Part shown: positions 8,603 to 62,101 of the stretch, in pieces
Layout: every line of letters starts with the position of its first letter
Position numbering within the stretch: the stretch's first letter is position 1
Assembly (NCBI GenBank): GCA_963793865.1
Contig: CAWCBP010000001.1
Location: forward strand, 463,457 to 527,456
Source of the DNA: an uncultured delta proteobacterium
GTDB lineage: Bacteria > Desulfobacterota > WTBG01
Direction: 5' to 3'
DNA length: 64,000 bases
Position numbers and translations under genes: made by a program
Notes under the pieces: generated by a model
Database searches by the model: none
Told to the model about the DNA's origin: nothing
Seen by the model: only the letters and a program-made list of their open reading frames with translations

Positions 8603-9538
8603 ATGCAGAGTGAAGACATGACCGGGCAGGCCGGCGGTCTGCCATCCGGCTTTGATGCTGCGGCACGGGATGAAGGTAAGCACGGGACAAAGCCCCGCAC
8701 AAAACCCTCCATTGCTGTCAACGTGGTTCTGTTTATCTGTACGGTCGGGACGACCGTTCTGGCCGGCGCGCTCCAGCAGGGAGTCAATCCCTTGGAGGAC
8801 CCGTCGCAGCTGATCAAGGGGCTGCCGTTTTCGGCTGCGCTGTTGTTCATCCTGCTGGCCCATGAAATGGGGCATTTCCTCACCTCAAAATATTACCGCA
8901 TTGATGCCAGCCTTCCCTATTTTATACCGGCGCCCACGTTCATAGGGACCTTCGGCGCGTTCATCAAGATGCGCTCCCCGATGCTGAATAAGCGTGTTCT
9001 GCTTGATGTCGGGGCCAATGGTCCGCTGGCCGGGCTGCTGGTGACCATTCCGGTTCTGGCGGTCGGCCTGAAGCTCTCTGAAGTGAAAGCGCTCACAACC
9101 CCTCTGGAGGGGGGCATGGCGCTGGGATCATCTCTCATCCTTTATTTCATGACCACGGTTATTCTGGGCCCCCTGCCCGATACGCACCAGGTGATTCTCC
9201 ATCCCCTGGGCTTTGCGGGCTGGATCGGATTGCTGGTCACATCCATGAATCTCATACCGGTGGGGCAGCTCGACGGCGGGCACATTGCCTACGCGGTCTT
9301 CGGCAGGAAAACGAGGCACATATCAACGGCAGTCCTCATCTGTCTGCTCGGCCTTGGCATCTGGGCGTCGCAGATGTGGCTGATGTGGGCTCTCATCCTT
9401 TTTGTCCTGCTGGGCATACGGCATCCCGCGCCGCTTGATTATGATGAGCCGCTGGACCGCAGGCGCAGAATGCTGGGCCTGGGCATGCTGGTGATTTTTG
9501 TGCTGACCTTTGTGCCGGTGCCGTTCGGAAATCTGTAA
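8603..9538 (+). CDS. Site-2 protease family (M50) membrane metalloprotease
   Basis: HEMGHF zinc-binding HExxH within hydrophobic segments. Multi-TM. Confidence 0.75.
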   Translation: MQSEDMTGQAGGLPSGFDAAARDEGKHGTKPRTKPSIAVNVVLFICTVGTTVLAGALQQGVNPLEDPSQLIKGLPFSAALLFILLAHEMGHFLTSKYYRIDASLPYFIPAPTFIGTFGAFIKMRSPMLNKRVLLDVGANGPLAGLLVTIPVLAVGLKLSEVKALTTPLEGGMALGSSLILYFMTTVILGPLPDTHQVILHPLGFAGWIGLLVTSMNLIPVGQLDGGHIAYAVFGRKTRHISTAVLICLLGLGIWASQMWLMWALILFVLLGIRHPAPLDYDEPLDRRRRMLGLGMLVIFVLTFVPVPFGNL

Positions 9539-9544
9539 GGCTTG

Positions 9545-41749: not shown

Positions 41750-42017
41750 TTCGAATCCCATACCGGATCCCCGCTTTCGCGGGGATGCCGGTCGGTGAAA
41801 GGGAATTCAGTCCTTCCCACACCCCCCATCCGGTTCTAATAAAGTGCACACCCCGAAAGCATTAAAGTATTAACCCCATGCTGTCGATAACAGTGAGTGC
41901 ACAATATAATACCATTTCCTGACCATGCATACGCCGCCTTACCCGGTTACTTCTTTAATCAAACGGCTGCAGTTGACGTCCTGACCTCAGGCTTTGGAAG
42001 CTTGCCAAGGGGAGCAC

Positions 42018-43520
42018 ATGAAAGGGAAGAACAAGTTTAACGATCCCAGGCTGCAATTTATTTCCAATATTTCATCCCTGGTGACCTCGGTTTTTGACCT
42101 GGACCACCTGCTGGGAATGATCATTGAATCCGCCACCGAGGTGATGAAAGCCCGGGCCAGTTCGCTGCTGCTGCTTGATAAAAAAACCGATACGCTCTAC
42201 TTCCAGGTCGCCACCGGGGAAAAGAGCGATGACGTGAAGAAATTTGAAGTCGGCCTGGGTGAAGGCATCGCGGGATACGTGGCAAAAACGGGCAAGCCGC
42301 TGCTGGTGGAGGATGTCAGCACGGATGCCCTGTGGGATAAGAAGATAAGCGAGTCCATCGGCTTTGATACCACATCCATTGCCTGCGTCCCCATGAAGAT
42401 CGGTGAGGAAGTGATCGGCGTGGTTGAAATTATTGACCGGGAGGACGGCAATCCCATCCGGCGGGAGGACATGGAAATGCTGGAGGCCTTTGCCAACCTG
42501 GCGGCGCTGGCCATCGTCAAGGCAAAGGAGTATCGCAAGGTCATTGATGAAAATGCAGGCCTCAAAAATCAGCTGGAGATGAAATACCGGATTGTGGGAG
42601 AGAGCAAGGAGATACAGAAGGTGATTACCGACGCCCTCAAGGTGGCCAATTCCAAGACCACCGTCTTGATTGAAGGGGAGAGCGGGACGGGCAAGGAGCT
42701 GCTGGCGCGCCTGATCCACCGGTCCGGGCAGCGCCGGGACCAGCCCTTCGTGATTGTCAACTGCGGCGCCCTTCCCGAAACCCTTTTGGAGGCCGAGCTC
42801 TTCGGCCATGAAAAGGGTTCCTTCACCGGCGCGCTCTACAAGAAGATCGGGCTGTTTGAGACCGCCGACGGCGGCACCATATTCCTCGACGAAATCGGCG
42901 AGATGAGCCAGACCATGCAGGTGAAGCTGCTGCGGGTCCTCCAGGAAGGCAGCTTCAACCGCATCGGCAGCTCCGTGCCCATAACCGTTGATGTCAGGGT
43001 TGTCTCCGCGACCAACAAGCAGTTAAATAAGATGACCAGGGAAGGCAAGTTCCGCGAGGACCTGTTTTACCGGCTCAACGTGATCCAGTTGAAGATTCCT
43101 CCGCTCCGGGAGCGCCGGGAGGACATTGGCGTGCTGGCGCACTACTTCCTGCGCAAGTATACCAGCGAGCGGGGCCTGCGCAAGCTGGAGTTCTCATCGG
43201 AAGCCATGAAGGCAATTTTGAGCTACGACTGGCCGGGGAATGTGCGCGAGCTTGAAAATGCCATCGAGCGGGCGGTGGTGATGGGCGACGGGGAAAAGAT
43301 CGGCGTTGCGGACCTGCCCATCGGCAAAACCGATTCAGGACTGCAGAGCGGGGTGGAGGTGGGGATGACCCTGAAAGAGGCTCAGGATATTTTCAAAAAG
43401 GAGTTTTTGACCAAGACCCTGGCCTACACCCACGGCAACCGGAAAAAGGCTGCCGATATCATGGGGATTCAGCGCACCTATCTCTCCCGGTTGATCAGTG
43501 AATTCAATTTGCGGCTGTGA
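42018..43520 (+). CDS. Sigma-54-dependent transcriptional activator with N-terminal GAF domain and C-terminal Fis-type HTH
   Basis: GESGTGKE, the GAFTGA-loop region (GSFTGA) and [13 protein letters not shown]-terminal ...[22 protein letters not shown] before the ATG at 42018. Confidence 0.9.
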
Positions 43521-43547: not shown

Positions 43548-43826
43548 TCATTCGTCAATGGAAAACGCGCAGATGGATAAAGCGATGACGATCAGGGCAT
43601 TGATCGCCCCGGTGATGAAAAAAAACAATGCCGCGTAGTTGAACTGGAATGACTGGTGGACGAACTTATCATAGTTGTACACGTATCCCCAGTACATGGC
43701 AAAAAGTATGGCGGCTAACAGCCCGGCGGCATATTTTTTAAAGCCCAGGCAGGATATCATAATAATGATCAGTACCACCATCTGCCACAGCGGGATTTCG
43801 AGTACGATATCGGTAGTGAGTTCCAT
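43548..43826 (-). CDS. Small hypothetical membrane protein
   Basis: Three hydrophobic segments. No recognisable family. Confidence 0.35.
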   Translation of the reverse strand: MELTTDIVLEIPLWQMVVLIIIMISCLGFKKYAAGLLAAILFAMYWGYVYNYDKFVHQSFQFNYAALFFFITGAINALIVIALSICAFSIDE

Positions 43827-44140
43827 GACAATGCCCCTCCCTGACCTATACACAGCCTAAGCCTCAGCATGGTGCCCGCCGGCCGTGCGCAGTCTCTTTC
43901 ACCGCTTACGATCCAGACATATCCCGAACAATGATGCATAAATATATTTGCAAGCTCTGTGCCAGGCGGCACGCGGCTGCCGGAAGCATAATCCTCGTGC
44001 GCATCAATGATACGCCCCGATAGTATGGCTACCTGGTATATAAAAGTGCAATGAATGAAAAAAATGAGTATACAACCGTGAGCCGGTCCGGTGAGACGAT
44101 AAGGATTGAGTGCCCCGGGGAGAAAAGATTGGCGGGAGGT

Positions 44141-47773: not shown

Positions 47774-48646
47774 ATGAAAGCATCTTCTTGTGCCCTTCTC
47801 TTGTGCTTAAGCGCTGCCCTCTGCGGAAGGGCGATGCCCCTGCATGCCGGGCAGAAGCCGCAGCAAAAGATAGCCATTCTTCCCCTGACCACCGGCGGGC
47901 AGGAGAATATAGGTTATATTGCCGAAGGCCTGAGGGACATGATAGCCTCGCGTGTCGCTTCCGGCTCCGGCCTGGCGGTTATTGAGCAGGCCGCGGTACA
48001 AGCAAAATATGCCGGTGCCGGCCGGGAAACCCCGTCGCTGGAAAAGGTGCGGGGGGTGGGAAAGTCGCTCGGGGCTGATTACGTGCTTTTCGGCAGCGCA
48101 GCGACGATGGGGAACGACCTGATCATCGCTGTCAACATGCTTGCCGTCTCGGGTACGGGGCCCCCCGTGCCGGTATTTTCGCAAACCCTGGGGCAGGACG
48201 AGGTGATACCCCGTCTGCAGCTCATCGCCCAGGAGGTGAGGGATGCGGCGGCTGACGGTCTGATGGACCGGGAAGAAGACAGCCCCCCGCTGTCGCCCGC
48301 GGAAGAGCCGAAGGTGTCAGAGGGGGAGGGGAAGGCAGGCCCTGCGCCAGAGTCGGCGGCAGGCCCCGAACCCCCGATGGAAAGCTCCGATGCGGTCAAA
48401 CCTGATGAACCGGGGGAAGCAGCCGCCGGCAGTGACCATGAGGGGGAGGCCGGGCAGGAAGCGGGCAGCGGCGAAGCTGTTGGTGAGAAGGGAGAACGGG
48501 AGGGAAGAATAAGGGACCTTCTGTTTAAGAAGAAGGGCGACATTAAAGCCCCCCCTGAAAACCCGGCTTATGATAAGTCAGTTGATGATCTTCAGGACGC
48601 CGCCGAACCGCAACCGAAGACGAATGAACCGTCTGCCGGGGATTGA
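47774..48646 (+). CDS. Secreted protein with an acidic Pro/Glu/Gly/Ala-rich low-complexity C-terminal tail
   Basis: AAGGAG RBS and signal peptide MKASSCALLLCLSAALCGRA. A structured N-terminal domain (KIAILPLTTGG...YVLFGS) is followed by about 120 aa of low complexity. Confidence 0.5.
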   Translation: MKASSCALLLCLSAALCGRAMPLHAGQKPQQKIAILPLTTGGQENIGYIAEGLRDMIASRVASGSGLAVIEQAAVQAKYAGAGRETPSLEKVRGVGKSLGADYVLFGSAATMGNDLIIAVNMLAVSGTGPPVPVFSQTLGQDEVIPRLQLIAQEVRDAAADGLMDREEDSPPLSPAEEPKVSEGEGKAGPAPESAAGPEPPMESSDAVKPDEPGEAAAGSDHEGEAGQEAGSGEAVGEKGEREGRIRDLLFKKKGDIKAPPENPAYDKSVDDLQDAAEPQPKTNEPSAGD

Positions 48647-48700
48647 GCACGTCTGCGGGAGCGGAGAGGCGTGAGGTATCATGGCAATTCGTTGAAATAC

Positions 48701-48777
48701 GGCGGTGTAGCTCAGGTGGTTAGAGCATGCGGCTCATATCCGCAGTGTCCGGGGTTCAAGTCCCTGCACCGCCACCA
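48701..48777 (+). tRNA. tRNA-Met (anticodon CAT); could alternatively be tRNA-Ile2 (lysidine-modified CAT)
   Basis: Cloverleaf with 7-bp acceptor stem GGCGGTG/CACCGCC, D-arm TAGCTCAGGTGGTTAGAGC, anticodon loop CTCATAT, T-arm GGGGTTCAAGTCCCT and 3' CCA. 77 nt. Confidence 0.85.
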
Positions 48778-48902
48778 CTTTTTTCTGCTGAGCCACATGA
48801 GGGTAGGGGGGGCTGTTTTGCTTATGCGAAACGGCCTTTTTCGTCTCACCCGGGTGCGTGATCCGCGGCGGTATGCAGCTGCAGCAAAAAAGTGAAAAAA
48901 GC

Positions 48903-48933
48903 TTGACAGCCGCGGAACAAAAATATTATAGAT
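48903..48933 (+). promoter_or_regulatory. Sigma-70-like promoter (TTGACA, 17-nt spacer, TTATAG/TATTAT) upstream of the redox gene cluster
   Basis: Perfect -35 hexamer at 48903-48908 and an AT-rich -10. About 100 nt upstream of the first ferredoxin gene. Confidence 0.4.
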
Positions 48934-49033
48934 ACCATCTTAGTTTTTTTTTGCGCCCGGGAGCGGGCGCATAACCGGATTGCAGTGCCGAAACCTGATG
49001 AAAAGCAGGCACGGCGCTTAAAGGAGACACAGG

Positions 49034-49204
49034 GTGATTCGCATTGACAGGGAAAAGTGTGTTGGGTGCGGCGGGTGCGTGGATCTCTGCCCCCGGACGG
49101 CCATCTGTTTTGTCAAGGACCGCGCATTCGTGGATGTGCAGCTCTGCCTGGAGTGCCGGACATGCGTGAAAGTCTGCCCGGTGAAGGCGCCGTCAGAGGT
49201 GTAG
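49034..49204 (+). CDS. Small 2x[4Fe-4S] ferredoxin (56 aa)
   Basis: GTG start with an AAGGAG RBS. CVGCGGCVDLCP and CLECRTCVKVCP motifs. Too short to be in the ORF track. Confidence 0.65.
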   Translation: MIRIDREKCVGCGGCVDLCPRTAICFVKDRAFVDVQLCLECRTCVKVCPVKAPSEV

Positions 49205-49271
49205 GTTTGCGGTCACGGCGATTATGAACATGGTTCATGGTTAGTGCAGGTAAACTTTTTGCAAAGGAGAT

Positions 49272-49559
49272 GTGATTTTGGAATCGACTGCGGGATTTCA
49301 GAAAAAGATGATCAGCTGCTCGTTGCTTGATCAGGGCCGGGGCATGCCATTTCGGCCGGGAGACGCGCGGGAGTGGACGCCGGAGTGGGACAAGGACAAG
49401 TGCATCCGCTGCGGGCTCTGTTTTGTGTACTGTCCCGACGGCGCGGTGTTCCGCAATCAGGAGGGTTATTTTGAAGCTGATACCGACAAGTGCAAGGGCT
49501 GCGGCATATGCCACCGGGAATGCTGGTTCGGGGCCATCAGCATGTTCAAGGAGGAATGA
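49272..49559 (+). CDS. 2-oxoacid:ferredoxin oxidoreductase delta-subunit-like ferredoxin (PorD-like)
   Basis: N-terminal extension followed by CIRCGLCFVYCPDGAV and CKGCGICHRECWFGAI. About 95 aa. Confidence 0.6.
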   Translation: MILESTAGFQKKMISCSLLDQGRGMPFRPGDAREWTPEWDKDKCIRCGLCFVYCPDGAVFRNQEGYFEADTDKCKGCGICHRECWFGAISMFKEE

Positions 49560-49561
49560 CA

Positions 49562-50287
49562 ATGGATAAGTACAGTCTCTATGTTTCTAATTTCCTGCCT
49601 TGCAAGGAATACTTCAGCCCTGAGCTGAACCAGGCATGCCCGGGCTGCGGGCTGGCGCTGGCCATCCGCCAGACATACAAGGCCCTGGGCATGAGCATTG
49701 AAAAGGGGGCCTGGGCGTCAGCAGAGCATGGAAAGGCCGGCGCTGCCGGTTCCGGGCTCTTTGGAACGGGCGCAACCGATGTCACCTTTTTGACCATTCC
49801 CAAGGCCCGGGGGAAGCTGGTGATCTGCTGCGATAACGAAGCGGGCGGATCTCTCGCCGACCTGCTTGAGAAACCCATGCCCCAGCTCGCCGCGTCACAG
49901 GGTTTCAGCTATGTGGCCACGGCCTGTCCCAGCTATCCCTTTGACCTGTACGACAAGATGAAGCGGGCCTTCAAAAGCACTGCCGACGCCTATGTGCACG
50001 TGCTCTGTCCCTGCCCGCCGGGCTGGAAGTTTGACGCGGATTTCACGGTGAAACTGGGGCGGCTGGCGGTGGAAAGCCGGGCATTCCCCCTGTATGAAGC
50101 GGGCGCGGGCGCGTACGGCCTCACGGTGAAGACGGGGAAGCCCAGGCCGCTTGCCGACTATCTCAAGGCGCAGGGGCGGTTTGAAAAGCTGAGCGAGGGG
50201 GAAATGGCCGAGGCGCAGGCATCGGTTGACCGTGCGTATAAACATCTGGAAGGCATGATACAGCAGTATCTCGACGCGGTTGCGTAA
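49562..50287 (+). CDS. 2-oxoacid:ferredoxin oxidoreductase beta-subunit-like (TPP-binding, PorB-like), divergent
   Basis: N-terminal ACPGCG and C-terminal LCPCPPGWK....RLAVESRAFPLYE match PorB. The canonical GDG TPP motif is degenerate (GTGATD...DNEAGGS). No alpha or gamma subunit nearby. Confidence 0.5.
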   Translation: MDKYSLYVSNFLPCKEYFSPELNQACPGCGLALAIRQTYKALGMSIEKGAWASAEHGKAGAAGSGLFGTGATDVTFLTIPKARGKLVICCDNEAGGSLADLLEKPMPQLAASQGFSYVATACPSYPFDLYDKMKRAFKSTADAYVHVLCPCPPGWKFDADFTVKLGRLAVESRAFPLYEAGAGAYGLTVKTGKPRPLADYLKAQGRFEKLSEGEMAEAQASVDRAYKHLEGMIQQYLDAVA

Positions 50288-50330
50288 GATGAGTGTCCCG
50301 GCTTCGGGATATCGTTGAAAGGAGCAGGTA

Positions 50331-51080
50331 ATGTCTAAGAGTACGAGGATGAAACCAGGCGCAAAGAAGAGCTCACAAAAAAAGGCTTCGTCTCCTGCGA
50401 CTGCTCAAGCGCCCCAGGCTGCGGCCCCGGGCTCATGGGCGGGCAGCAGCAAGGCCATGTTTGAGCTCATGATCAAGGAGGTGCCGGAATCGCTGCAGGA
50501 TGTGTTCCGGGTGAAACTGATGGATATACTCGGGCAGAAGGCGAAGGGCGGTGCCTACCAGGAAGCCCAGGTTGTGGAGATCGTCAATGAAATCGTGCCC
50601 GAGCCGTTCAAGTCCAACATCCTCAAGGGTTTCGCCACCATGGGGGGTGTTGACATAAGCCTGGTTGAAGGCATCGTGGCTTCATATCCCGGCGGCCAGG
50701 AATCCGTCCCCGCCATACTTCACGCCCTGAAGGCCAAGTTCGGCCATGTGCCGGAAGAGGCGCTGCGGGTGGTGAGCCAGAAGAAAAATGTGTTCATGAG
50801 CACCCTCTACCGGCTGGTGACCTCATTCACGGCGTTCCCAACCGATTTGCCCAGGAAATACACGGTGAGCGTCTGTGACGGCACGGGGTGCCACCTCAAG
50901 GGCAGCGCTTCAATGCTGAAAAAGCTTGAGGAGAAAGCGGCCTCGCCGGACGCGGACATTAACTTGGAAAAGGTGAGATGCCTGGGCTGCTGCGACCTTT
51001 CGCCCGCGGTGCTGGTGAACGGTGAAATGTACAGCGGTGATGATGCCCATGCCAAGATTTCAGAAATGTTAGGTGAATGA
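50331..51080 (+). CDS. NuoE/HoxF-N-like [2Fe-2S] thioredoxin-fold electron-transfer subunit with N-terminal extension
   Basis: VSVCDGTGCHLKGS and RCLGCCDLSPAV cysteine pattern. About 100 extra N-terminal residues with a Lys-rich start. Confidence 0.7.
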   Translation: MSKSTRMKPGAKKSSQKKASSPATAQAPQAAAPGSWAGSSKAMFELMIKEVPESLQDVFRVKLMDILGQKAKGGAYQEAQVVEIVNEIVPEPFKSNILKGFATMGGVDISLVEGIVASYPGGQESVPAILHALKAKFGHVPEEALRVVSQKKNVFMSTLYRLVTSFTAFPTDLPRKYTVSVCDGTGCHLKGSASMLKKLEEKAASPDADINLEKVRCLGCCDLSPAVLVNGEMYSGDDAHAKISEMLGE

Positions 51081-51093
51081 TAAAGGGGAGTCT

Positions 51094-52804
51094 ATGAAAC
51101 AGGATAAACCGCTTGACCTGAACGCGATACAAAAGAAGGGGCTCAGCATGCTGGCGCCGGCGCGTGCCCGGATTACCGTCGGCATGGCAACCTGCGGATT
51201 GGCCAAGGGCGCGGGGAAGATTTTTGAAGCCCTGAAGTATGAGATCAAGAAGCAGAAAGCCAAGGCTGACCTGGTGGTGGTGGGGTGCAACGGCCTTTGC
51301 TATGCCGAACCCATTGTTGAAGTGATCTGCCCGGGAAAGCCGCGCATCACCTATGGCCGGGTGAGCGTGGAACGGGTTCCTGACCTGGTGGCCTCGGTGG
51401 CAAAGGGAGGCGTGGTCAAGGATCTGGCCCTGATGAGGATGGACCGGTTAACCGCGGAAGGCGGTGCATCGATCAAATATGCCGGGGCGAAGGTCCCCAA
51501 GGACGCGGCCGCGCTCAAAGAATGCGGGAAGCTTGATTTTTTCAAAAAGCAGATGAAGCTCATCAGCAAAAACGCCGGAACGGTCAGCCCGGAGCAGGTT
51601 GAGGAATACTGCGCGCTGGGCGGCTACCAGGCGCTGCTGAAAGCCGTTACCTCCATGAGCCCGGATGAGGTCATCAGGGAAGTAACCGTGTCCAAGCTCC
51701 GCGGCCGGGGCGGCGCCGGATTCCCGGCGGGCATTAAGCTGCAGGCATGCCGTCAGGCGGCCGGGGATGCCAAGTACATTGTCGCCAACGGCAGCGAAGG
51801 CGATCCCGAAATCGGCATGCACCGGAGCTTTCTGGAATCGGATCCCCACGCGGTCATAGAGGGGATGGCCATCGCCGGCTACGCGGTGGGTGCATCGGAA
51901 GGCTACATTTATTTGAATGACCGGTACCAGGTGGCCCACGAGCGGCTCACCCGGGCCATCGAGGGGGCGGAAGCCCTGGGACTTATCGGGAGCAATATAG
52001 CGGGTTCGGGATTTTCTTTCTCCCTGCGGGTGAAGCGGGGAGGAGGCGCGTACGTGTGCGGCGAGGAAACGGCGCTGCTCAACGCGCTGGAAGGCTCGTT
52101 CGGCGAGCCGAGACCGCGGCCCCCGTATCCCGCGGAGAGCGGGCTTTTCAACAAGCCCACCGTGGTCAACAATCTCGAGACCCTGGCAACCATTCCCGCC
52201 ATTATCGCCGGGGGCGGGGAAGCGGTACGCGGGCATCGGCACGCCGGGCAGCACCGGCACGAAAATCGTGGCCCTGTCCGGGCATGTGGCCAGGAGCTGC
52301 TGGGTGGAGGTCCCGCTGGGCATGGAGATCGGGGAGATCATTGAAACCTTCGGCGGCGGCGCCGCCAACGGAAAGAAGATAAAAGGTTTCCAGGCGGGAG
52401 GCCCGTCAGGCGGCATTCTGCCGGCCAAACTGCTGAAGATCAAGCTTGACTACGATCGCCTGGCCAAGGAAGGAAGCCTGCTGGGTTCGGGCGGGCTGGT
52501 GGTCATGGATGAGGATACTGACCTGCTGGAGATGGCAAAATTTTTCACCGACTTTTTTGCCGACGAGTCCTGTGGAAAGTGCAGCATCTGCAGGGAAGGC
52601 ACCAAGCGGCTCCAGCAGATCATCACTGATGTGATGGAAGGGCAGGGAACAAGCGAGCACATCGCCCTGGTCAAGCGCCTGGCATCAGCACTGTCGGATA
52701 CCGGCGCCTGCGCCCTGGGCAAAACCGCAGCGGTGCCCTTTATATCGGTGCTCAACCATTTCCCGCAGGTGATCGAAGGCAAACTGCTCAGGAAGAAAGC
52801 GTAA
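51094..52804 (+). CDS. NuoF-like NAD(H)-binding FMN/[4Fe-4S] flavoprotein subunit with N-terminal thioredoxin-like domain, carrying an apparent frameshift at about 52225
   Basis: GRGGAGFPAGIKL, then after the frame switch GTKIVALSGHVARSCWVEVPLG and the 4Fe-4S motif ESCGKCSICREG. Confidence 0.8.
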
Positions 52805-52844
52805 GGTCATAAACGGCGTAGCGATACGAGAGAGGATGATATTT

Positions 52845-53783
52845 ATGGTGAGCTTAAAGATAAATGGAAGGAAGATAAAGGCAGCGGAGGGCATGACCAT
52901 CCTTCAGGCGGCGCGGGTCAATGACATTGAGATACCCACGCTGTGTTCGAATGACGCGCTCAAGCCCTATGGCGCCTGCCGCCTCTGCGTGGTGGAGATC
53001 GGGAAAAACGGGAGGGTGACGGTGGACACATCCTGCACCTACCCGGTGAGCGACGGGCTGGAGGTGCAAACCAACACCCCCCGCATCAGGGAAGCGCGCA
53101 AGATGATTCTCGAGCTCCATCTGGCGCGCTGCCCCAACGTGCAGATTGTCCAGGAGCTGGCCGCGGAGTACGGGGTGACCGAAAGCGCCCAGCAGATGGG
53201 AAAGGATAATGAGTACTGCATACTCTGCGGGCTGTGCGTCCGCGCCTGCAACGACGTGGTCAAGGCGGGCGCCATCCAGTTTGCGGGACGCGGCCCGGGC
53301 AAGATGGTGGACTCGCCCTTCAGCAAGACCGCGGATGACTGCATTGCCTGCGGCTCATGCGCCTTTATCTGTCCCACCGGCATCATCAAGAAAAATGACC
53401 TGTTTTCCACCGCGCTCTGCACGCCGGACGGATGCGATCAAACCGGCCCGCAGCGCGAGATCCTGAACTGGAAGGTGGAGCACAAACTGAAGTGCTGCAA
53501 AAAGTGCGGCAATCCCTACGCGCCGGAGCCGCATCTGGAAAAGGTGAAGCGGGAAAAGAATCTGCCCAATGAATTTTTTGACATCTGCCCCTCGTGCCGG
53601 CAGTATCCGGTGGTTGACCCGGACAAGTGCCTGGGCTGCGGCGGCTGCATGGAGAACTGCCCCTGCGGCGCGCTGGAGCTCGAGGACAAGGGCGGTTATG
53701 ATAAAAAGGCGCAGCTCTATCCGCAGAACTGCACCGCCTGCCACAGCTGCGAGCTCATCTGTCCCATGCAGGCCATCAGCTAG
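52845..53783 (+). CDS. NuoG-N-terminal-like [2Fe-2S]/[4Fe-4S] iron-sulfur subunit (ferredoxin-type and His-ligated cluster domains only; no molybdopterin or H-cluster domain)
   Basis: I.INGRKI......TILQAA...IEIPTLC....L.PYGACRLCVVEI, CILCGLCVRAC, CIACGSCAFICP and CLGCGGCMENCP. Confidence 0.7.
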   Translation: MVSLKINGRKIKAAEGMTILQAARVNDIEIPTLCSNDALKPYGACRLCVVEIGKNGRVTVDTSCTYPVSDGLEVQTNTPRIREARKMILELHLARCPNVQIVQELAAEYGVTESAQQMGKDNEYCILCGLCVRACNDVVKAGAIQFAGRGPGKMVDSPFSKTADDCIACGSCAFICPTGIIKKNDLFSTALCTPDGCDQTGPQREILNWKVEHKLKCCKKCGNPYAPEPHLEKVKREKNLPNEFFDICPSCRQYPVVDPDKCLGCGGCMENCPCGALELEDKGGYDKKAQLYPQNCTACHSCELICPMQAIS

Positions 53784-53832
53784 AGAGTTGCCCCAATTCT
53801 GAATGACTATGTAAGCATCCAAGGAGGAAGTA

Positions 53833-55131
53833 ATGACGGTTTACGATCTTGCCATTGTGGGCGCCGGTCCCGGAGGTGTGCATGCTGCCAAGTGGGCGGC
53901 CAAGAAGGGGCTCAAGACGATTCTCATTGAGAAGCGCAAAGACATCTCCAAAATCACCCGTTACTGCAGCGAGCATTTGATACTCGATGAAGGCTATAAC
54001 GGGGATACGGTTTTGGTGGATCCTAAAAAAGGCACCATCACCTCGACGGCGAACGGGTGGGTGGTTGACTATAAAGGCGGTTTGTTCCCCTGCATTGATA
54101 AATGGTACTACTCTCCCAAGGGCAGGGCCATCCACTTCGCCTGGCCTGACCGGCGGCCGTATGCCTACAAGTACGACAAGGGCTTTCTGCTGGGGAGCCT
54201 GCTCGAGGAATGCCTGGCGCTGGGGGTCACCTTCCAAAATGAAACCAGCGGCTATGACGCGGTCGACAGCGCCCAGGGGGTCGAGATCAAGTGCGTGAGC
54301 AGGGGAAAGAAGGAGAAGGTGAAGGCGAAAAAGCTCATCATCGCCGACGGGTGCAACACCCGCCTGGGGCAGGCAATGGGTTTCAACGCCAGCCGCGGTT
54401 ACATGGGCTTTGCCCTGTGCATGGCCAGCTACATGTCCGGCGTGAAGAAATACAACCCTGAAGAATGGGTGCTCTGGTACGGCAGGTGCTACGGCTCAAA
54501 TCTCGCCCCCATCATCGGCACCGGGCCGGCCGGCCATTTTGAGGACTGGGCGGATGTGATCAACCTCGGCAGCCCCCGGGACCTGCCGGTGGAGGCATTT
54601 GGCCGGTTCACCAAAAACAGTCCCATAGCCGACCGGTTTGCAAACGCCAAGGTTGAAGAGCGGTACTGCTGTTCGGTCAAGGCCTTTACCCCCATTGCCC
54701 GTCCCTATAAAAGTAATACTATAATTATAGGAGATTCTGCCGCGTTTGTTGAAGTGCAGGGTCAGGGGGCTCTGAGCTGCGGTTATAAGGCCGCGGAGGC
54801 GGTTGCCAGGGAACTCAAGGGTGAAAAGGGGTTCGAGGAATACGCCGACTGGTGGCTTAAATCGTTTGAGTTCAATGACAAGGGGATGATGCAGGTGCAG
54901 CAGGGATATGCCTTTGTGCCCACCTATACCGATGACGAGCTTGACTACCTTTTCGGCCTGTGTGAGGACGTGCTCCTGGACGGGAGCTTCAGCCAGTACA
55001 AGTCATCCCGGATGATATGGGACGCAATCCTGCGCGACCCGAAGAAAATTGAGCGGGAACACCCCGCCACCTATGCAAAAATCAAGAGCGTCCGCAGCAG
55101 CACCCTTGAAAGCAGCCTCAAGGACGGCTAA
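53833..55131 (+). CDS. FAD-dependent oxidoreductase, geranylgeranyl-reductase-like fold
   Basis: YDLAIVGAGPGGVHAAKWAAKKGLKTILIEKR dinucleotide-binding motif. About 430 aa. AAGGAGGAAG RBS. Confidence 0.65.
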   Translation: MTVYDLAIVGAGPGGVHAAKWAAKKGLKTILIEKRKDISKITRYCSEHLILDEGYNGDTVLVDPKKGTITSTANGWVVDYKGGLFPCIDKWYYSPKGRAIHFAWPDRRPYAYKYDKGFLLGSLLEECLALGVTFQNETSGYDAVDSAQGVEIKCVSRGKKEKVKAKKLIIADGCNTRLGQAMGFNASRGYMGFALCMASYMSGVKKYNPEEWVLWYGRCYGSNLAPIIGTGPAGHFEDWADVINLGSPRDLPVEAFGRFTKNSPIADRFANAKVEERYCCSVKAFTPIARPYKSNTIIIGDSAAFVEVQGQGALSCGYKAAEAVARELKGEKGFEEYADWWLKSFEFNDKGMMQVQQGYAFVPTYTDDELDYLFGLCEDVLLDGSFSQYKSSRMIWDAILRDPKKIEREHPATYAKIKSVRSSTLESSLKDG

Positions 55132-55154
55132 GACGCGGGCGTTTGCTGAATCAA

Positions 55155-55190
55155 ACAAAAGCCGGGGATTTGCTTCCCCGGCTTTTGTTC
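55155..55190. terminator. Bidirectional rho-independent terminator (AAAAGCCGGGGA-loop-TCCCCGGCTTTT) between convergent genes
   Basis: A 12-bp stem flanked by an A-run and a T-run, between the FAD oxidoreductase (+) and the outer-membrane protein gene (-). Confidence 0.7.
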
Positions 55191-56388: not shown

Positions 56389-56694
56389 ATCTATGGTCTG
56401 TTGCTATAATCAAACAGAAAGAAGAATTCGATTTACGGAAAGTTGTATTTATCGGTTGACAGAGGCTCAGGCGGATGATAGTTAATTTCGAACCATAGCG
56501 CAGCCCTTATGAATAAAGAAAGCGGATGTAAGATATGGTAGCAGAATCCGAATGGGCAGTCAAATTTTTATGGAACTATTGTAGTGAATGCCGTTGCATT
56601 TGAGGGGCCGGCCCCGGTCCGTTGCGTAACGGCAGCGTGAGGAAATGAAGGCGAGGCCGGACAGGAATACCCACCGTGCGAGAGGAGTTTGGTT

Positions 56695-57462
56695 ATGGCA
56701 AAGGTAGCATGGAATGAGATGACTGCGTTCGCAAAAGTTATTGTGGAGGATTACAAGCTGTTTGAAGGACTGGAGCTGGTGCCGCTTGAGACCTACCAGG
56801 GCATGGACACCAGGCCGGCCTGGGAGTTTAAAACCCCCATGGCCACCGGCTTCTACAAGCCGTACCTCATCAAGGGAAGCGACCGGATCGAGAAGATCAC
56901 CATCGGGGAGCTGCATTACATGGGACGGGCCAAGTACTGCGCCCTGAACATGACCGCGAGCAACGATTACGACCTGCCCATCTATGCCTGCGAGTTTGAC
57001 GAGACGGCGCCGCGGGTGGGCGTGACCATGGATTTAATGCCCACGGTGGACATCGCCCGGCACGAGGAGTACCTGCAAAAATACTACCGGGAGATAGCGC
57101 CGCTGTGGCGGAAGTACCGAACCATACCCGGATTTACCCTTGAAGGCCGCTGTCTGGTGCAGAGAAGGTACGCGCCCTGGCCCTGGGCGCGCGAGTCGCT
57201 CTCTCCCTTCAGCCTTGACGGGCGGGTGGAGGAGAAGGAGGACCGGGTGAAGCTGATGGAGGCGGTGGTGGCCTATGCCCGGGTGTGGCTTAACCTGCTG
57301 AAGAAGGCGGAGCCCATCCGGGATGAGGGGTACCGGCAGGAGATGCTGCGCAGAAAAAGCAAAACCCAGAAATATTACCGCGATCTTGACCCGGGCGGAG
57401 AGGTGATGAAAAAGATTTTCGGCGCGGAAAAAAGCCACCTCTTCGTGAGCCTTGTCTTTTAA
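56695..57462 (+). CDS. Hypothetical protein, paralogue A; weak resemblance to ferredoxin-dependent bilin reductase (FDBR/HY2) family
   Basis: RBS GAGAGGAG. YDLPIYACEFDE...VGVTMDLMP resembles the FDBR motif LP.FG.D.V....AI.DLSP. Paralogous to the next gene. Confidence 0.35.
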   Translation: MAKVAWNEMTAFAKVIVEDYKLFEGLELVPLETYQGMDTRPAWEFKTPMATGFYKPYLIKGSDRIEKITIGELHYMGRAKYCALNMTASNDYDLPIYACEFDETAPRVGVTMDLMPTVDIARHEEYLQKYYREIAPLWRKYRTIPGFTLEGRCLVQRRYAPWPWARESLSPFSLDGRVEEKEDRVKLMEAVVAYARVWLNLLKKAEPIRDEGYRQEMLRRKSKTQKYYRDLDPGGEVMKKIFGAEKSHLFVSLVF

Positions 57463-57475
57463 AGGAGGTAGAGAA

Positions 57476-58204
57476 ATGGATGCAGGCGTAAAATGGACAC
57501 CCTATCTGGAAAAAATGAAGGGATTGATTGATTCGCTGCAGCCCACCGCGCTTCAGGAGTGGAAGGGGCAGAATCTTGCGCCCGCCCTGGAGTTTGCCAG
57601 GGGCCAAGCGCGGGGAGGGTTCAGCGCATACCGCGCTGACAAGCTGGAAAAAATAGGCATCGGCTCATTTGTCCATGCCGGCAACAGGCACTTTGCCTTC
57701 TGCAGCATCATGCCCGGGGAAGCCTATGACCTGCCCCTGTTTCTCTCGCGTCTCGATGAGGGGCCGGAGGAGGTCATTTTCCTGGTTGATATCATCCCCG
57801 CGGTGGACAGCCTGGTGGATGAGGAATACCGCAAGAAGTATATCGAGTCGGTGCAGCCCCTCTGGGACCGGTTTGCCGCCCTGCCCGGCATCTGTCCCGA
57901 GGAAAGCGATGTCATCCGCTCACTCGCCTCCATCATTTACACCGCGGCCCGGGTTCCCATCGAGAAGGAGGGGATGCGCCTGGCGGCCCTTGCCCCGCAC
58001 ACTGAATATCTCAAGAGCTACCTCGCGTTTCTTCCCGAGGCGGTGCCGGTTACCGATGAGGCGAAGAAAAAGGAGCTGGCGGCAAAACGCGCGGCGCTGC
58101 GCGCAACCCTGCGTGCCCATTTTTTCAAGGAAATGCTGCCGGGTCCGGCACGGGAAGAACTGGGTGATGGCATGATCGAACTGCTTAATGCTGTCTATTT
58201 TTAG
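57476..58204 (+). CDS. Hypothetical protein, paralogue B of the preceding gene (FDBR-like?)
   Basis: RBS AAAGGAGG. YDLPLFLSRLDE...IFLVDIIPAVD...PLWDRF parallels paralogue A (YDLPIY..EFDE...TMDLMP...PLWRKY). Confidence 0.35.
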   Translation: MDAGVKWTPYLEKMKGLIDSLQPTALQEWKGQNLAPALEFARGQARGGFSAYRADKLEKIGIGSFVHAGNRHFAFCSIMPGEAYDLPLFLSRLDEGPEEVIFLVDIIPAVDSLVDEEYRKKYIESVQPLWDRFAALPGICPEESDVIRSLASIIYTAARVPIEKEGMRLAALAPHTEYLKSYLAFLPEAVPVTDEAKKKELAAKRAALRATLRAHFFKEMLPGPAREELGDGMIELLNAVYF

Positions 58205-58217
58205 GGAGGGATGAGAC

Positions 58218-58628
58218 ATGTCGGTTATGGAAATGCTTGCGGCAGGAGCCGATTTTACCAACGCGGATGAAACGGCGCAGGGGATGATGGCTGATTTCAG
58301 CGACCACAAGGTGGGCATGAAGCTTGACGCGGACGAGTTCACCCAGGTGGTAAAAGACGGCAAGCTCTATCTGGAGCAGGGGATCCGCGAGGACTGCCAC
58401 GTGGTGCTGAAGCTGAAAACGGCCGATCTCTGCAGCGCCATCGACAACACCTTCGATCTCATGGAAATCAAGGACAAGGGGGAGCTGTTGAAGGGCGATA
58501 TGACCGATCCCAACGTTCCCGTCCACCTCATGGCCACCTTTCCCTTTTTCGATGCCATGGTCCGGCTGTATGAATCCGATCCCCGCTTTAAAAAAATGGT
58601 TGATGAGGTTAAGTCTACTTTGGGATGA
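58218..58628 (+). CDS. Small protein, possibly SCP2 sterol-carrier-like lipid-binding fold
   Basis: 136 aa with the pattern ...HVVLKLKTADLCSAIDNTFDLMEIKDKGELLKGDM.... A weak call. Confidence 0.3.
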   Translation: MSVMEMLAAGADFTNADETAQGMMADFSDHKVGMKLDADEFTQVVKDGKLYLEQGIREDCHVVLKLKTADLCSAIDNTFDLMEIKDKGELLKGDMTDPNVPVHLMATFPFFDAMVRLYESDPRFKKMVDEVKSTLG

Positions 58629-58640
58629 GGTGCCCTGCAT

Positions 58641-58847
58641 ATGGTGAAACATCTGGTCGATCTGGAAAAGTGCCGCGGCTGCGGGCAGTGCCTTGAGCAG
58701 TGCGGACTGGAACTGTGGGTTCTGGTGGAAACACCGGACGGAAAGAAAAAAGCCAAGGCAATCGAAGAGGCGGGCATGATCTGCCACTGCTGTCTTTCCT
58801 GCCAGGACGCCTGCCCGGAAAAAGCGATCACCATTCTTGACGAGTAA
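58641..58847 (+). CDS. 2x[4Fe-4S] ferredoxin (68 aa)
   Basis: CRGCGQCLEQC and CHCCLSCQDACP motifs. Confidence 0.65.
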   Translation: MVKHLVDLEKCRGCGQCLEQCGLELWVLVETPDGKKKAKAIEEAGMICHCCLSCQDACPEKAITILDE

Positions 58848-58924
58848 CGGGCCGGTGGCCGCTCATGAGCGTGTGAGCATCGGCGCAACCTGATTGTAAT
58901 GATGAATGATGAGAAGGAGTAAAG

Positions 58925-60273
58925 ATGCCCAGGGAATATGATCTGGTGGTGGTCGGCGCGGGGCCTGCCGGTTTGATGGCCGCCAAAACAGCAGCCGAAC
59001 ACGGGCTGAGCGTGGCCCTGATCGAGCGGAAAGAGCACATTACTGATATCAACCGTGCCTGCAGCATGATGGTGGTGACCCTGACCGGGAAATATCTGGA
59101 GGAGCGGGTACGCTTAAACAGCCGGGACAGGAAGCTTTGCTTCCCGGGATACGGTTTTACCGTCAACTATGACGGCCCCCACCGTGACTTTTACACCTGG
59201 GCCATATACTCCCACCGGGGCAACAAAATTCAGCTCGGCAACTATGAAGAGAACGAGCGCAAGGGCGAGAGCGGCAGGGTGAGCGCGACGTACGATAAGG
59301 GGGCGCTGCTGCGCTGCCTCCTGGAGGAGGCCCGCGCCCTGAAGGTTGATGTCTACAACCCGTATAATGTAATCCGGACCGATCTGCAGGGAGGCAGGGT
59401 GACGGTTTTCACCCGCGAGGGAAGATCCTTCAGGGGCACCTTCGTCATCGCCGCCGACGGTCGCGCCTCCAGAATAGCCCACACCCTGGGCTGCAACCGG
59501 GATCGGAAGTATTTCGGCACTGCGGTGACCCTGGGGTATGAAATGGTGGGGGTAAAGCCGCCGGAAAAATTTGCCCTCTTCCAGATATTTCTCGACGAGA
59601 CACCTTCCAAGCGGGTGTGGATGACGCCGCGGACGACGAAGGACACCTACTTCGTCATGACCACCTCGCTCACCCCCGGCGCAGACCTCGCGGGCGCCTT
59701 TGAGCGGTTTTCGAAAAAGGGTTTTTTCGCGCTCCTGGTTCGAAAAGGCAGAGATAAAGCGCACCCTGACTTCCGCGGGCAACGCGCTCTCACACATAGT
59801 CGATCCCTACAAGGACCAGGTGCTGCTTGTCTCCGACGCGGTGTGGTGCCAGGAGGCGGAGATGACCGGGGCGGTCATCAGCGGCTGGAAGGCGGCCAGC
59901 TGCCGTCAGCTTCGCCCTGGCCGATGGAAAGATATCGCGGGAAGGGGTTTCATCCTACCTCCGCTGGTGGAAAGAAGAGGTGCTGGATAAATACGATTAC
60001 CGGAGCATGATGCGCAATGCCGTGCTTCCCCTCCGGCTCACCCCTGACGAGATTGACTTCGTGCTGAGCCTGGTTAAAAAATCACTGCCCAGCATCCTTG
60101 ATCCTTATGAGACCCCCAAGCTGGTCGGCGGCGCCCTGGCGGAGATAATGCCGGCCGTTGCCAAACAGCGGCCCGCCATTCATCAGAAGCTTGCAGGGAT
60201 GCGCAATGTGCCGCTGGCCGCCGTTTTTGACGGATGCATCAGGGCGGGCTTCCCCATGCAGGCCCGCGGCTAG
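58925..60273 (+). CDS. FAD-dependent oxidoreductase (geranylgeranyl-reductase-like), paralogue of 53833-55131, with two apparent frameshifts (about 59722-59727 and about 59895-59905)
   Basis: YDLVVVGAGPAGLMAAKTAAEHGLSVALIERK. The C-terminal half is recovered in three frames colinear with paralogue 1 (AFERFSKK / SRSWFEKAEIKR...PYKDQVLLVSDA...GWKAA / SYLRWWKEEV...). The first shift is at a T6 run. Confidence 0.7.
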
Positions 60274-60369: not shown

Positions 60370-62101
60370 ATGATGCGCAATGAGCATGACTCCTCCGCTG
60401 AAAAGAAAAAAATAATTCCGGCACGGCTGCCGGAGGGAATGTACCAGGCATTGGAAGCATGTCGTTGGCAAGGAGTGGATTTCCCGCGACCGGGCGGTTC
60501 TGGAAACCTACAGCAAGCTCTCGCTCGACGCGGAAGGGTTTTTAAAGAAGCACGCCCGGAACGGCTCAAGCATTCCCGCCTGCGTGGTGCTGCCGGGCGG
60601 CACCGATGAAGTGCGGTCCGTGGTGAGGATCGCCCGGCGATACCGGGTTCCCGTCATACCCTTCACCAACGGCCAGATGATGAGCGCCCCCACCTTTCCC
60701 GTTCCCATGCTCTGCATTCACCTGAGCCGGATGAACCGGGTGCTGGCCATCGATGAGCAGCTCATGACGGCCACGCTTGAACCCTATGCGGACTACGGGC
60801 AGCTTCTGGCCGAGGCTGCAAAAGTGGGGCTCTGGAATGGAGGGACGCCGCTGGCAACCACCCTGTGCAAGCTTTCGTCCCAGGTGGCCTTTGCGGGCAT
60901 CTGGCAGACCAGCAAGAAATACGGCCTGCTGGACAGAAACATCGTGGACATAAAGCTGGTGCTGCCCACGGGTGAAATCATGAGCACCGGTTCCCCCGCG
61001 GTTGCGGGCGTTGACCGCGTATGGGAGAGCGGACCGGGCCCTGACCTCACCGGGGTGGTGCGCGCCAGCGCCGGGACCACCGGCATCATTACCGAGGTGA
61101 CCGTCAAGCTGCACACCTGGGTCGGCGGGGAGCTGATGCCGGAACCGCGGGCGGGAAGGCCCTGCATTCCCTGCTATGCCGATGAGCGCTACGACCATGC
61201 CCCCGCGCCGCCCCGGCACCGCATCCACTGGATAGAGTTTCCCGACTGCGAATCCGAAATCAGGGCATACCGGGCCATCGCCCACGCGGGCATCGGCATC
61301 GGGCTCAATGCCTCGGGGGTGTATTCCTCCTATTACTGCTCCCCAACCCAGAAAATGACCGAGGAGCGGGCGACGGGCAATTTTTTCCCCGCCTTCAACC
61401 TCTATGTCATCTGCGCGGGCATCGTATCAGAGGGCCAGCTGGCCTATGAGGAAAAGGTGCTCAGGGAGATAGCGGAAGAGCAGGGCGGCAGGTTTCTCTC
61501 CCGCGACCATAAGCCGGAGGTGCTGCAGGCGCTCGCCCCGTGGAACCTGGACTGCATCAGGAATGTCTGCGGCTATCGCATGAACCGGCGCATGTACGCG
61601 GGCGGGAGCCTTCCCGCGGGTCCGCCCGAGGTGGCCCTCTATCACAGCCGGCTCTGGCGTGAAGTGCTCGAGCGCTTCGGTGAGACGCACGTCACCGACC
61701 GCGGAGGGGCGGAAACGACCCCCTTTGTGTACGGCATAGAGCCGGCGGGGCGCTACACCCTCTCGGAGACGGATATCTACCCGGATCCGATGGACCCTCA
61801 TTCGCTGGAACAATGCGTCGCCATTACCATGTACAGCGCGGTTAAAAATGGCGCCGAGCGGCACTGCGCGCCCTTCGGCTTCGGCGGTCCGGCTGAACCA
61901 TTGGTCACCTTTTTCCCCGAGCAGGGTCCCAATGTCCATCTCCTGCTGAGAAAATTAAGAAAGGTCTTTGACCCACAGGGCATCTGCAGCCCCGGCAGGC
62001 AGGTGCTTACCGAGGAAGAGCTCAAGGAATATCCGGCGGAGGCGGTTGCCAGACTGAATGAACTGCGGAAGTTTTTTAACATGGGCACGATTGAAAGGTA
62101 A
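60370..62101 (+). CDS. FAD-linked oxidase (FAD-binding PCMH/GlcD-type fold), paralogue 1 of 3; N-terminus carries an apparent frameshift at about 60458
   Basis: The N-terminus MMRNEHDSSAEKKKIIPARLPEGMYQALE continues, after a shift, as DVVGKEWISRDRAVLETYS...CVVLPGGTDEVRSVVRIA. This is colinear with paralogue 3 (KAKVIPNRVSREVFQALQDVVGPEWISEDRAV). The start codon is uncertain (60316 or 60370). Confidence 0.6.

Follow-up and report, generated by a model that had tools for sequence, protein, structure and literature searches.

A Six-Gene Operon Ending in a Flavoprotein Gene

In a 64-kb stretch of contig CAWCBP010000001.1 from an uncultured delta proteobacterium (hereafter, the window), genes for proteins resembling the NuoE, NuoF and NuoG subunits of NADH-dependent enzymes are preceded by genes for a PorD-like ferredoxin and a PorB-like protein, relatives of two subunits of 2-oxoacid oxidoreductases. 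An earlier note on this DNA had described the module as having no catalytic partner subunit. Which enzyme, then, do these genes encode? We found that they belong to one six-gene operon on the + strand (49272-55131), in the order PorD-like, PorB-like, NuoE-like, NuoF-like, NuoG-like and a flavin adenine dinucleotide (FAD) enzyme (Table 1). The gene of the FAD enzyme (53833-55131) starts 49 nt past the NuoG-like stop codon, just beyond the segment covered by the note, and is syntenic in every related locus with a sufficiently long contig. The view that a catalytic partner is missing was therefore given up. The note had allowed for an adjacent catalytic subunit coming to light once sequencing errors were corrected; a likely one adjoins the module without any such correction.

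The gaps between the six genes range from an 8-nt overlap to 49 nt. A strong intrinsic terminator (55154-55189) is located 23 nt past the stop codon of the FAD-enzyme gene, no other terminator-like site was found on the + strand within 49272-55131, and the gene after the terminator lies on the opposite strand.

We consider it somewhat better than an even bet (probability about 0.55) that the operon encodes a soluble six-subunit flavin/iron-sulfur (Fe-S) oxidoreductase of Por-Bfu-type origin, linked to both NADH and ferredoxin, in which the PorB/PorD pair takes the place of the C-terminal ferredoxin domain of BfuB with its clusters B3 and B4. Por-Bfu (Por-BfuA-G) is a predicted pyruvate-linked member of the BfuABC enzymes and is itself uncharacterized (PMC9304861). 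The NuoG-, NuoF- and NuoE-like proteins correspond to BfuA, BfuB and BfuC, respectively.

Conservation of the Cassette and Its Relation to Por-Bfu

When 185,579 species-representative genomes were scanned and the loci mapped by tblastn, three groups emerged. Group 1, the type seen in the window (L001-L029 and L060), was found in Thermodesulfobacteriota or "delta" metagenome-assembled genomes (MAGs) and in one Myxococcota MAG. Its members share the content and order PorD, short PorB, NuoE, NuoF, NuoG and FAD enzyme, the last being present wherever the contig reaches that far, and their flanks are unrelated between loci. After clustering of all open reading frames (ORFs) flanking group-1 loci, the six cassette families recurred in 20-26 loci and the next commonest neighbor in 5. 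The identical six-gene order was observed in three genomic contexts picked from the list of PorB-like homologues, and a Spirochaetota contig carries NuoE-NuoF-NuoG-FAD enzyme. Since the sixth gene recurs with the other five across loci, it is an integral, conserved member of the unit.

Group 2 (L030-L059) is a paralogous cassette of PorD, short PorB, NuoE and NuoF, with or without NuoG, that lacks the FAD enzyme. In group 2a, a NuoG like that of group 1, but of 311 aa, has no FAD enzyme next to it; group 2b consists of PorD, PorB, NuoE and NuoF alone. Some group-2 cassettes have a rubrerythrin gene downstream, recalling the predicted Rub-Bfu.

The four-gene makeup of group 2b would be expected if the operon encoded two enzymes, namely a soluble NADH:ferredoxin oxidoreductase (PorD/PorB with NuoE/F) and a ferredoxin-dependent reductase (NuoG with the FAD enzyme) sharing that ferredoxin. 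Free-standing relatives of the FAD enzyme that are paired with just a small ferredoxin gene, and the presence of groups 1 and 2 in the same genome in 24 of 33 MAGs, would fit as well. However, the N-terminal [2Fe-2S] domain of BfuA/NuoG, which is 100% conserved here, is both the dock and the electron link to BfuB/NuoF in every solved homologue, NuoG always comes directly after NuoF, and electron transfer from NADH to ferredoxin is by itself endergonic. A division into two enzymes is therefore improbable.

Group 3 (L061-L083), mostly from Dehalococcoidia, contains PorG, PorD, PorA, full-length PorB, BfuC, BfuB and BfuA and corresponds to the Por-Bfu enzyme predicted by Schut et al. (PMC9304861). 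It shares with the cassette the order PorD ... PorB-BfuC-BfuB-BfuA and a WorA-type BfuA core, and it provides the nearest full-length PorB relatives (33-37% identity; NuoF, 38-43%). It differs in having PorG and PorA, a PorB of 306-313 aa that matches TPP_enzyme_C, a BfuC of 149-157 aa, a BfuB of 618-630 aa with a C-terminal Fer4 dicluster and a BfuA of 242-258 aa without an extra ferredoxin domain, and no gene like that of the FAD enzyme accompanies it. Judged by homology, the cassette clearly descends from the Por-Bfu/Wor-Bfu lineage.

The Sixth Protein Resembles Geranylgeranyl Reductases

The FAD enzyme has a fold of the geranylgeranyl reductase (GGR)/PHBH type with a GxGxxG FAD motif, and its AlphaFold2 model, built with 37 homologues, reached a pLDDT of 89.6. 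Residue C45 lines up with the cysteine in the PVRCGEG motif of 3oz2 (the Cys47 equivalent), and both R43 and C45 are invariant in the 37 homologues. In archaeal GGRs, the conserved Cys47 is the catalytic cysteine (PMC10821996). Identity with the GGRs of T. acidophilum (3oz2) and S. acidocaldarius (3atq) is 14-20%. These alignments place the FAD enzyme in the geranylgeranyl-reductase superfamily, as a distant relative of the known GGRs. It is likely the catalytic partner of the NuoEFG/PorB/PorD module. By analogy, the fold and the cysteine suggest a hydrophobic substrate with a C=C bond.

Free-standing relatives (~422 aa, 45-47% identity) were found in four contexts. In three of them a gene for a 56-57-aa 2x[4Fe-4S] ferredoxin comes next; the fourth is a cluster with FAD_binding_4 and CCG proteins.

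The NuoG-like protein offers a counterpart to this ferredoxin. As the earlier note had stated, it ends after its Fe-S domains, and neither an H-cluster nor a molybdopterin domain was found in it. Its best solved match, over residues 7-256, is WorA (9mqx_A) of the bifurcating WorABCSL. WorA contains the [2Fe-2S] cluster A1, two ferredoxin-type [4Fe-4S] clusters and a Cys4 zinc finger, and has no His-ligated cluster (PMC12318220). In the same way, the [2Fe-2S] cysteines and two CxxCxxCxxxCP motifs of the NuoG-like protein are 100% conserved, a motif for a His-ligated cluster is absent, and the WorA zinc finger has its counterpart in an aligned Cys4 site. An additional C-terminal 2x[4Fe-4S] domain is absent from WorA and from the BfuA of Por-Bfu. 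The ferredoxins that accompany the free-standing GGR-like enzymes match this domain best (41-45% identity, 45-49 bits); with PorD or with the middle domain they score 31-35 bits. The alignments thus identify the NuoG-like protein as a WorA-type BfuA with an added ferredoxin domain, and we infer that a GGR-type partner ferredoxin was fused to BfuA, wiring it to the FAD enzyme. We also considered whether the domain is the relocated C-terminal domain of BfuB. This idea was rejected, since the domain is found at NuoG's far end and has its greatest similarity to the GGR-partner ferredoxins.

WorABCSL has an adaptor helix and WorS in the position of the fused domain. Compared to the ferredoxin-partnered GGR paralogues (PMC10821996), the cassette would have its donor ferredoxin fused to the NuoG-like subunit of an NADH-linked complex. 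A GGR-like flavoprotein as third-substrate module is outside the functionalities listed for Bfu enzymes, which comprise modules for H2, formate, NADPH, F420, CO, pyruvate, aldehydes, aryl-CoA, quinone and peroxide (PMC9304861). No GGR-like module is on the list of that survey, and its supplement has no GGR or FixC entry (PMC9304861). Literature searches for this gene combination found no description of it.

FixABCX/EtfABCX (7koe) is similar in layout: it likewise joins an NADH-binding flavoprotein, a dicluster ferredoxin element and a GGR/PHBH-fold FAD subunit, with ferredoxin as second partner. The sixth protein might then act like FixC or ETF-QO and reduce menaquinone, so that NADH would reduce quinone and ferredoxin with the NuoE/F module in the place of EtfAB. 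The NADH module is nevertheless of the NuoEF/Bfu type, not EtfAB, and the flavoprotein, which has retained the GGR cysteine, resembles GGR more than FixC. We regard a Fix-like quinone reductase as very improbable.

Loss of the Thiamine Site from the PorB-Like Protein

The PorD-like protein scored 77 bits with TIGR02179 (PorD_KorD; curated cut-off 60) and matched PorD_Arch with E = 3.5e-23, so that its earlier description as a delta-type ferredoxin was correct. It contains eight cysteines in two CxxCxxCxxxCP motifs; all eight and C16 are 100% conserved among 28 group-1 sequences.

The second protein had been taken for a homologue of thiamine-pyrophosphate (TPP) beta subunits with a degenerate GDG motif. 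The beta homology holds for its C-terminal half, but the motif is not degenerate; the whole GDG segment is deleted. The Pfam scan gave no matches to this protein, and the NCBIfam models of PorB, VorB and OOR-beta aligned with the C-terminal half only (residues 104-235 against 160-298), far under their cut-offs. This half scored 102 bits with OOR beta and keeps the motifs YVATACPSYPFDL and H(V/I)LxPCPxGW. In an alignment with the full-length PorB of Por-Bfu, the protein retains the N-terminal CxGCG, CxDNE and the entire C-terminal half, and two stretches are deleted: ~50 residues holding the third cluster cysteine (ATGC) and the GDG motif, and ~22-30 residues holding YMNTGIQ. Its AlphaFold2 model (pLDDT 73) matched POR/OOR beta subunits over just 125-172 columns. 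Of the cluster cysteines, C27, C30 and C152 are invariant. The nearly invariant C90 and C150 could substitute for the canonical third cysteine.

The thiamine-diphosphate segments are gone from all members of this family. The full-length PorB of group 3 matches TPP_enzyme_C (76.5 bits), whereas the short PorB does not, and a Pfam domain was found in 0 of 425 PorB-like homologues. A profile search of 1.84 billion representatives recovered the short form over its full length in ~10-12 clusters at 50% identity (258-383 bits); true PorBs matched over the C-terminal half only, with at most 174 bits. The PorB-like proteins thus form a small, discrete, thiamine-less family. The subunit is predicted to be unable to bind thiamine diphosphate and is probably an electron carrier only.

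Likewise in agreement with the earlier note, no alpha or gamma subunit was found in the window: a tblastn search of the 64 kb, with four PorA and four PorG queries taken from the nearest complete Por-Bfu loci, gave no match at E < 0.1, and Pfam scans of the larger ORFs at 25.8-64 kb revealed no POR or POR_N domain. Both subunits are also absent across all group-1 and group-2 loci. Searching for PorA elsewhere in the genome is moot, because every PorB-like member has lost the segments that bind thiamine diphosphate. Compared to the four-subunit oxidoreductases (PorABDG/VorABDG, oxalate oxidoreductase 5c4i and the M. acetivorans POR 9bt4), the cassette shares a bona fide PorD/KorD delta subunit and the C-terminal half of beta, but has no alpha or gamma, and its beta subunit has neither the TPP_enzyme_C signature nor the GDG and YMNTG segments, nor the third cluster cysteine. 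Without alpha subunit, gamma subunit and thiamine site, the cassette cannot, by its predicted makeup, be a 2-oxoacid oxidoreductase. The annotation "pyruvate:ferredoxin oxidoreductase beta subunit", which PorB-like genes now carry, is misleading. The family would be a clear instance of a thiamine-diphosphate enzyme subunit persisting as a pure electron-transfer protein.

It is unlikely that the FAD enzyme substitutes for PorA on PorB, since PorB and PorD co-vary with NuoE/F and persist in group 2 without the FAD enzyme.

NuoE- and NuoF-Like Proteins Are Related to Bifurcating Enzymes

The kinship of the NuoE/F/G module with the NADH-interacting arm of bifurcating enzymes, already proposed in the earlier note, was borne out by the best solved matches, which include NfnB, HydB and WorA. 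The two N-terminal peculiarities described there were also recovered, as set out below.

In the NuoE-like protein, whose best solved matches are NfnC and HydC, the Pfam domain 2Fe-2S_thioredx covers residues 113-244, so that the N-terminal extension, given before as ~100 aa, measures ~110 aa. The C1 cluster ligands C182, C187, C217 and C221 are all present. The extension occurs in groups 1 and 2 (proteins of 217-336 aa) and not in Por-Bfu. It consists of one copy of a ~70-aa helical module, of which some relatives have two, and family searches with it gave matches under the cut-off only (PCP_red, E = 0.18; DUF2621, E = 1.5e-4). In a subgroup of group 1, designated 1b (L001-L003 and L023-L029), NuoF carries at its N-terminus an acquired 95-aa copy of the same module.

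The NuoF-like protein contains the Pfam domains Complex1_51K, SLBB and NADH_4Fe-4S as well as the flavin mononucleotide (FMN) motifs. Its extra thioredoxin-like domain (residues 33-111) aligns with the N-terminal domain of NfnB and HydB, and C41, C72, C76 and E79, in the window type, correspond to the 3Cys+Glu pattern of Csac NfnB. The cysteines of cluster B1 (C500, C503, C506 and C546) are 100% conserved. Once the reading frame was repaired (see below), the protein scored 505-422 bits with the bifurcating BfuB proteins NfnB, StnB, HydB and WorB (NfnB 9n5u_B, 505), compared to 357 bits for the beta subunit of NAD-dependent formate dehydrogenase (FDH) and 304 bits for Nqo1.

Two elements of BfuB are missing. 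The B2 site, formed by 3 Cys and 1 His, adjoins a four-helix bundle (PMC9499530); it is absent from the NuoF-like protein, which has no cysteine past C546 and ends 30 residues further on, just behind the B1 helices. The C-terminal B3/B4 ferredoxin domain is absent as well: the second fragment contains just SLBB and NADH_4Fe-4S, the latter ending at residue 170 of 178, and the BfuB chains in solved structures run ~70-85 aa beyond the end of the NuoF-like protein. The Por-Bfu homologue has its Fer4 dicluster at residues 569-621. Moreover, the NAD(H) loop N(A/C)DEGDPGA(F/Y)MDR is replaced by NGSEGDPEIGMHR at residues 236-254 (window 51778-51834). This loop is confined to groups 1 and 2, that is, to short-PorB cassettes throughout, while the solved BfuB/NuoF proteins and Por-Bfu keep the canonical form. 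The nucleotide specificity of the NuoF-like protein may therefore differ from the canonical one.

Set against the solved Bfu enzymes NfnABC (9n5u, 9bov), HydABC (7p5h, 7q4v, 8a6t), NiFe-HydABCSL (7t2r) and WorABCSL (9mqx), the cassette shares the FMN/NAD(H) domain, B1, the 3Cys+Glu thioredoxin-like domain, the C1 subunit and WorA-like A1, A2, A4 and Cys4 sites; it lacks B2 and B3/B4, its nucleotide loop is altered and its BfuC carries the extension. By its scores, the NuoF-like protein is closest to bifurcating BfuB despite the lack of the B2 site and the B3/B4 domain; without B2, B3 and B4, the cassette falls outside the canonical Bfu enzymes.

The NuoF Frameshift Is Not a Feature of the System

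In the window, the NuoF gene is split into two overlapping ORFs. The closest relative, locus L004 from a Microflora Danica MAG ("uncultured delta proteobacterium"), has ~92-94% DNA and 95-97% protein identity to the window cassette, and the extra G at 52216-52219 is the only indel between the two over the 5.9-kb cassette. Past the frameshift, comparison of the corrected frame with L004 gave 26 synonymous codon differences and 2 non-synonymous ones, indicating that the gene is under purifying selection. The frameshift is therefore either an error of sequencing or assembly or a mutation of very recent date. The several ±1 indels that distinguish a neighboring gene (58925-60010) from L004 favor a sequence error, and in either case the frameshift is not a feature of the system. 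In L062, a Por-Bfu locus of another Microflora Danica MAG, PorA (8781-10227) is broken up into two ORFs that overlap, probably through one more homopolymer-type frameshift of long-read MAGs.

A broken NuoF gene, a truncated PorB and the absence of PorA and PorG from the window are what one would expect of a decaying Por-Bfu remnant, or of a true pyruvate oxidoreductase with PorA and PorG elsewhere in the genome. However, the truncated architecture and its invariant motifs are conserved, at identities of 40-97%, across ~56 loci. The pseudogene reading was rejected, as L004 does not have the frameshift and the corrected frame is under purifying selection; a distant PorA, in turn, could not restore catalysis, since the thiamine-binding segments are missing in every PorB-like member. 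Either form of this explanation is hardly credible.

Proposed Electron Paths and Their Standing

Three changes co-occur in groups 1 and 2, with or without NuoG and the FAD enzyme: truncation of PorB, extension of NuoE and loss of BfuB's C-terminal domain. Por-Bfu has none of the three. Starting from this co-variation, we propose the following scheme for the six-subunit complex. NAD(H) would react at the FMN of the NuoF-like protein. A first path would lead from B1 via A1, A2 and A4 to the fused ferredoxin domain of NuoG and on to the FAD of the GGR-like enzyme, which would reduce a probably hydrophobic C=C substrate, e.g., an isoprenoid. The second path would run from the [2Fe-2S] cluster of the NuoE-like protein to the [4Fe-4S] cluster of the PorB-like protein and to the two PorD-like clusters, where ferredoxin would dock. 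This path would take over the role of the lost B3/B4 domain, which forms the low-potential, ferredoxin-facing branch in canonical Bfu enzymes, and the N-terminal module of NuoE probably acts as an adaptor. The complex may couple NADH, ferredoxin and substrate reduction via bifurcation, from NADH to substrate and ferredoxin, or via confurcation, from NADH and reduced ferredoxin to substrate.

A more specific version is that the complex performs flavin-based electron bifurcation with NADH as donor, an exergonic branch via the GGR-like enzyme to a C=C or quinone-type substrate, and an endergonic branch to ferredoxin via the exapted, thiamine-less PorB/PorD pair in place of B3/B4. We put this version forward only tentatively. 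If true, it would define a new architectural class, in which a subunit of a TPP enzyme would for the first time be seen reused as low-potential exit in a bifurcating complex.

With NADH as reductant, the reduction of C=C bonds is exergonic, which would make coupling unnecessary. The operon might thus encode a plain, non-bifurcating NAD(P)H reductase in which the NuoE/F/G diaphorase feeds the GGR-like enzyme, with PorB and PorD as accessory or structural wires and without ferredoxin coupling. The missing B2 and B3/B4 sites, which are markers of the bifurcating homologues (PMC9304861, PMC11829005), and the loss of C1 and thioredoxin-site ligands in subgroup 1b agree with this explanation. It leaves unaccounted for the strict retention of a three-cluster PorB/PorD module beside NuoE/F in ~56 loci and the survival of this module in group 2b, where it is accompanied by NuoE/F only, and NuoF is much nearer to bifurcating BfuB than to FDH-beta or Nqo1. 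On balance, a plain reductase is unlikely.

Several observations weigh against the NADH- and ferredoxin-linked six-subunit complex that we prefer. The NuoF-like protein has no B2, B3 or B4 site, and B3/B4 were reported to be essential for bifurcation in HydABC (PMC11829005); the argument that PorB and PorD replace them is the co-variation of the three changes and that alone. In subgroup 1b, the C1 ligands of NuoE are largely lost (one to three of four cysteines, with patterns such as SADA, CADA and CCGC; only L027 retains all four), and the thioredoxin-like site of NuoF lacks two cysteines (C-S-S-E), yet all six genes are retained. A C1-dependent mechanism is therefore not universal. Given the altered nucleotide loop, NADH as substrate is not certain either. 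The PorB-like protein keeps three of the four canonical cluster cysteines. With TIGR02032, the FAD enzyme scored 62.4 bits (E = 5e-17), under the cut-off of 158.8, and the GGR cavity motif PxxYxWxFP is partly kept, with just P209xxW212 and G217 conserved. Group-2a cassettes have the same NuoG without an adjacent FAD enzyme. Finally, every carrier is an uncultured MAG, and the support is comparative throughout.

In Bfu enzymes, B3/B4 are held to be indispensable. A natural variant that lacks the domain and in its stead always has a three-cluster module of POR origin allows the requirements of the low-potential branch to be tested directly. A GGR-like C=C reductase would also be added to the third-substrate modules and would tie NADH/ferredoxin coupling to the reduction of hydrophobic substrates such as lipids or quinones, in hosts that are uncultured and probably energy-limited Thermodesulfobacteriota.

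Genomic Context

The features of the operon are listed in Table 1.

Table 1. Genes and sites of the six-gene operon (window positions).
Feature	Position	Strand	Remarks
PorD-like delta ferredoxin, 95 aa	49272-49559	+	2x[4Fe-4S]; additional invariant N-terminal Cys16
Truncated PorB-like protein, 241 aa	49562-50287	+	Without thiamine-diphosphate site; probable single-[4Fe-4S] electron-transfer scaffold
NuoE/BfuC-like [2Fe-2S] subunit, 249 aa	50331-51080	+	~110-aa N-terminal extension containing one ~70-aa helical module
NuoF/BfuB-like FMN and NAD(H) subunit, 576 aa once repaired	51073-52804	+	Split into ORFs 51073-52344 and 52268-52804
NuoF frameshift site	52216-52219	+	GGGG; GGG in the closest relative
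NuoG/BfuA-like Fe-S subunit, 315 aa	52836-53783	+	[2Fe-2S], 2x[4Fe-4S], Cys4 zinc-finger-like site, C-terminal 2x[4Fe-4S] domain (~258-315)
FAD-dependent oxidoreductase, GGR fold, 432 aa	53833-55131	+	Probable catalytic subunit
Intrinsic terminator ending the operon	55154-55189	+	15-bp stem with 8 G-C pairs, then T-tract

Upstream of the operon, an Rfam scan of 48500-49400 detected a tRNA-Met (CAT) at 48701-48777 (+), ~495 nt away, and no riboswitch. A pattern search for sigma-54 promoters near the cassette gave chance-level matches only. The sole perfect TGGCAC-N5-TTGCA in the window is located at 43949-43964 (-) and points at a small ORF (43548-43853); the gene of a GAF-domain sigma-54 activator (41994-43520, +) adjoins this site.

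Downstream, the region 56689-60010 (+) holds a cluster of ferredoxin-dependent reductase genes in what is a non-phototrophic, Thermodesulfobacteriota-type genome. It comprises two Fe_bilin_red genes (56689-57462 and 57452-58204) resembling ferredoxin-dependent bilin reductases (FDBR), with phytochromobilin synthase as best solved match (E = 1.7e-8), a 136-aa ORF without family, a 68-aa 2x[4Fe-4S] ferredoxin and a second GGR-like paralogue (58925-60010). The cluster is kept in the closest relatives only (L004, L006, L008 and the P0023 locus) and may relate to the pre-PcyA lineages (PMC10151467). The second GGR-like gene (58925-60273 region) shows ±1 indels relative to L004 around 59681-59901 and encodes 361 aa, compared to 446 aa in its homologue; it is probably frameshifted too, pointing to indel-type assembly errors.

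Two FAD_binding_4 (GlcD/AGPS-like) genes (60584-62101 and 62389-63861) come after this cluster. Similar combinations are present on unrelated contigs. Locus L088 has genes for TetR, a GGR-like protein of ~422 aa, a ferredoxin of 56-57 aa and two FAD_binding_4 proteins. L084 has the same combination minus the ferredoxin, and L087 contains TetR, a GGR-like gene, a ferredoxin and an FDBR-like fragment. The recurring combination of GGR-like, ferredoxin and FAD_binding_4 genes suggests a shared putative pathway.

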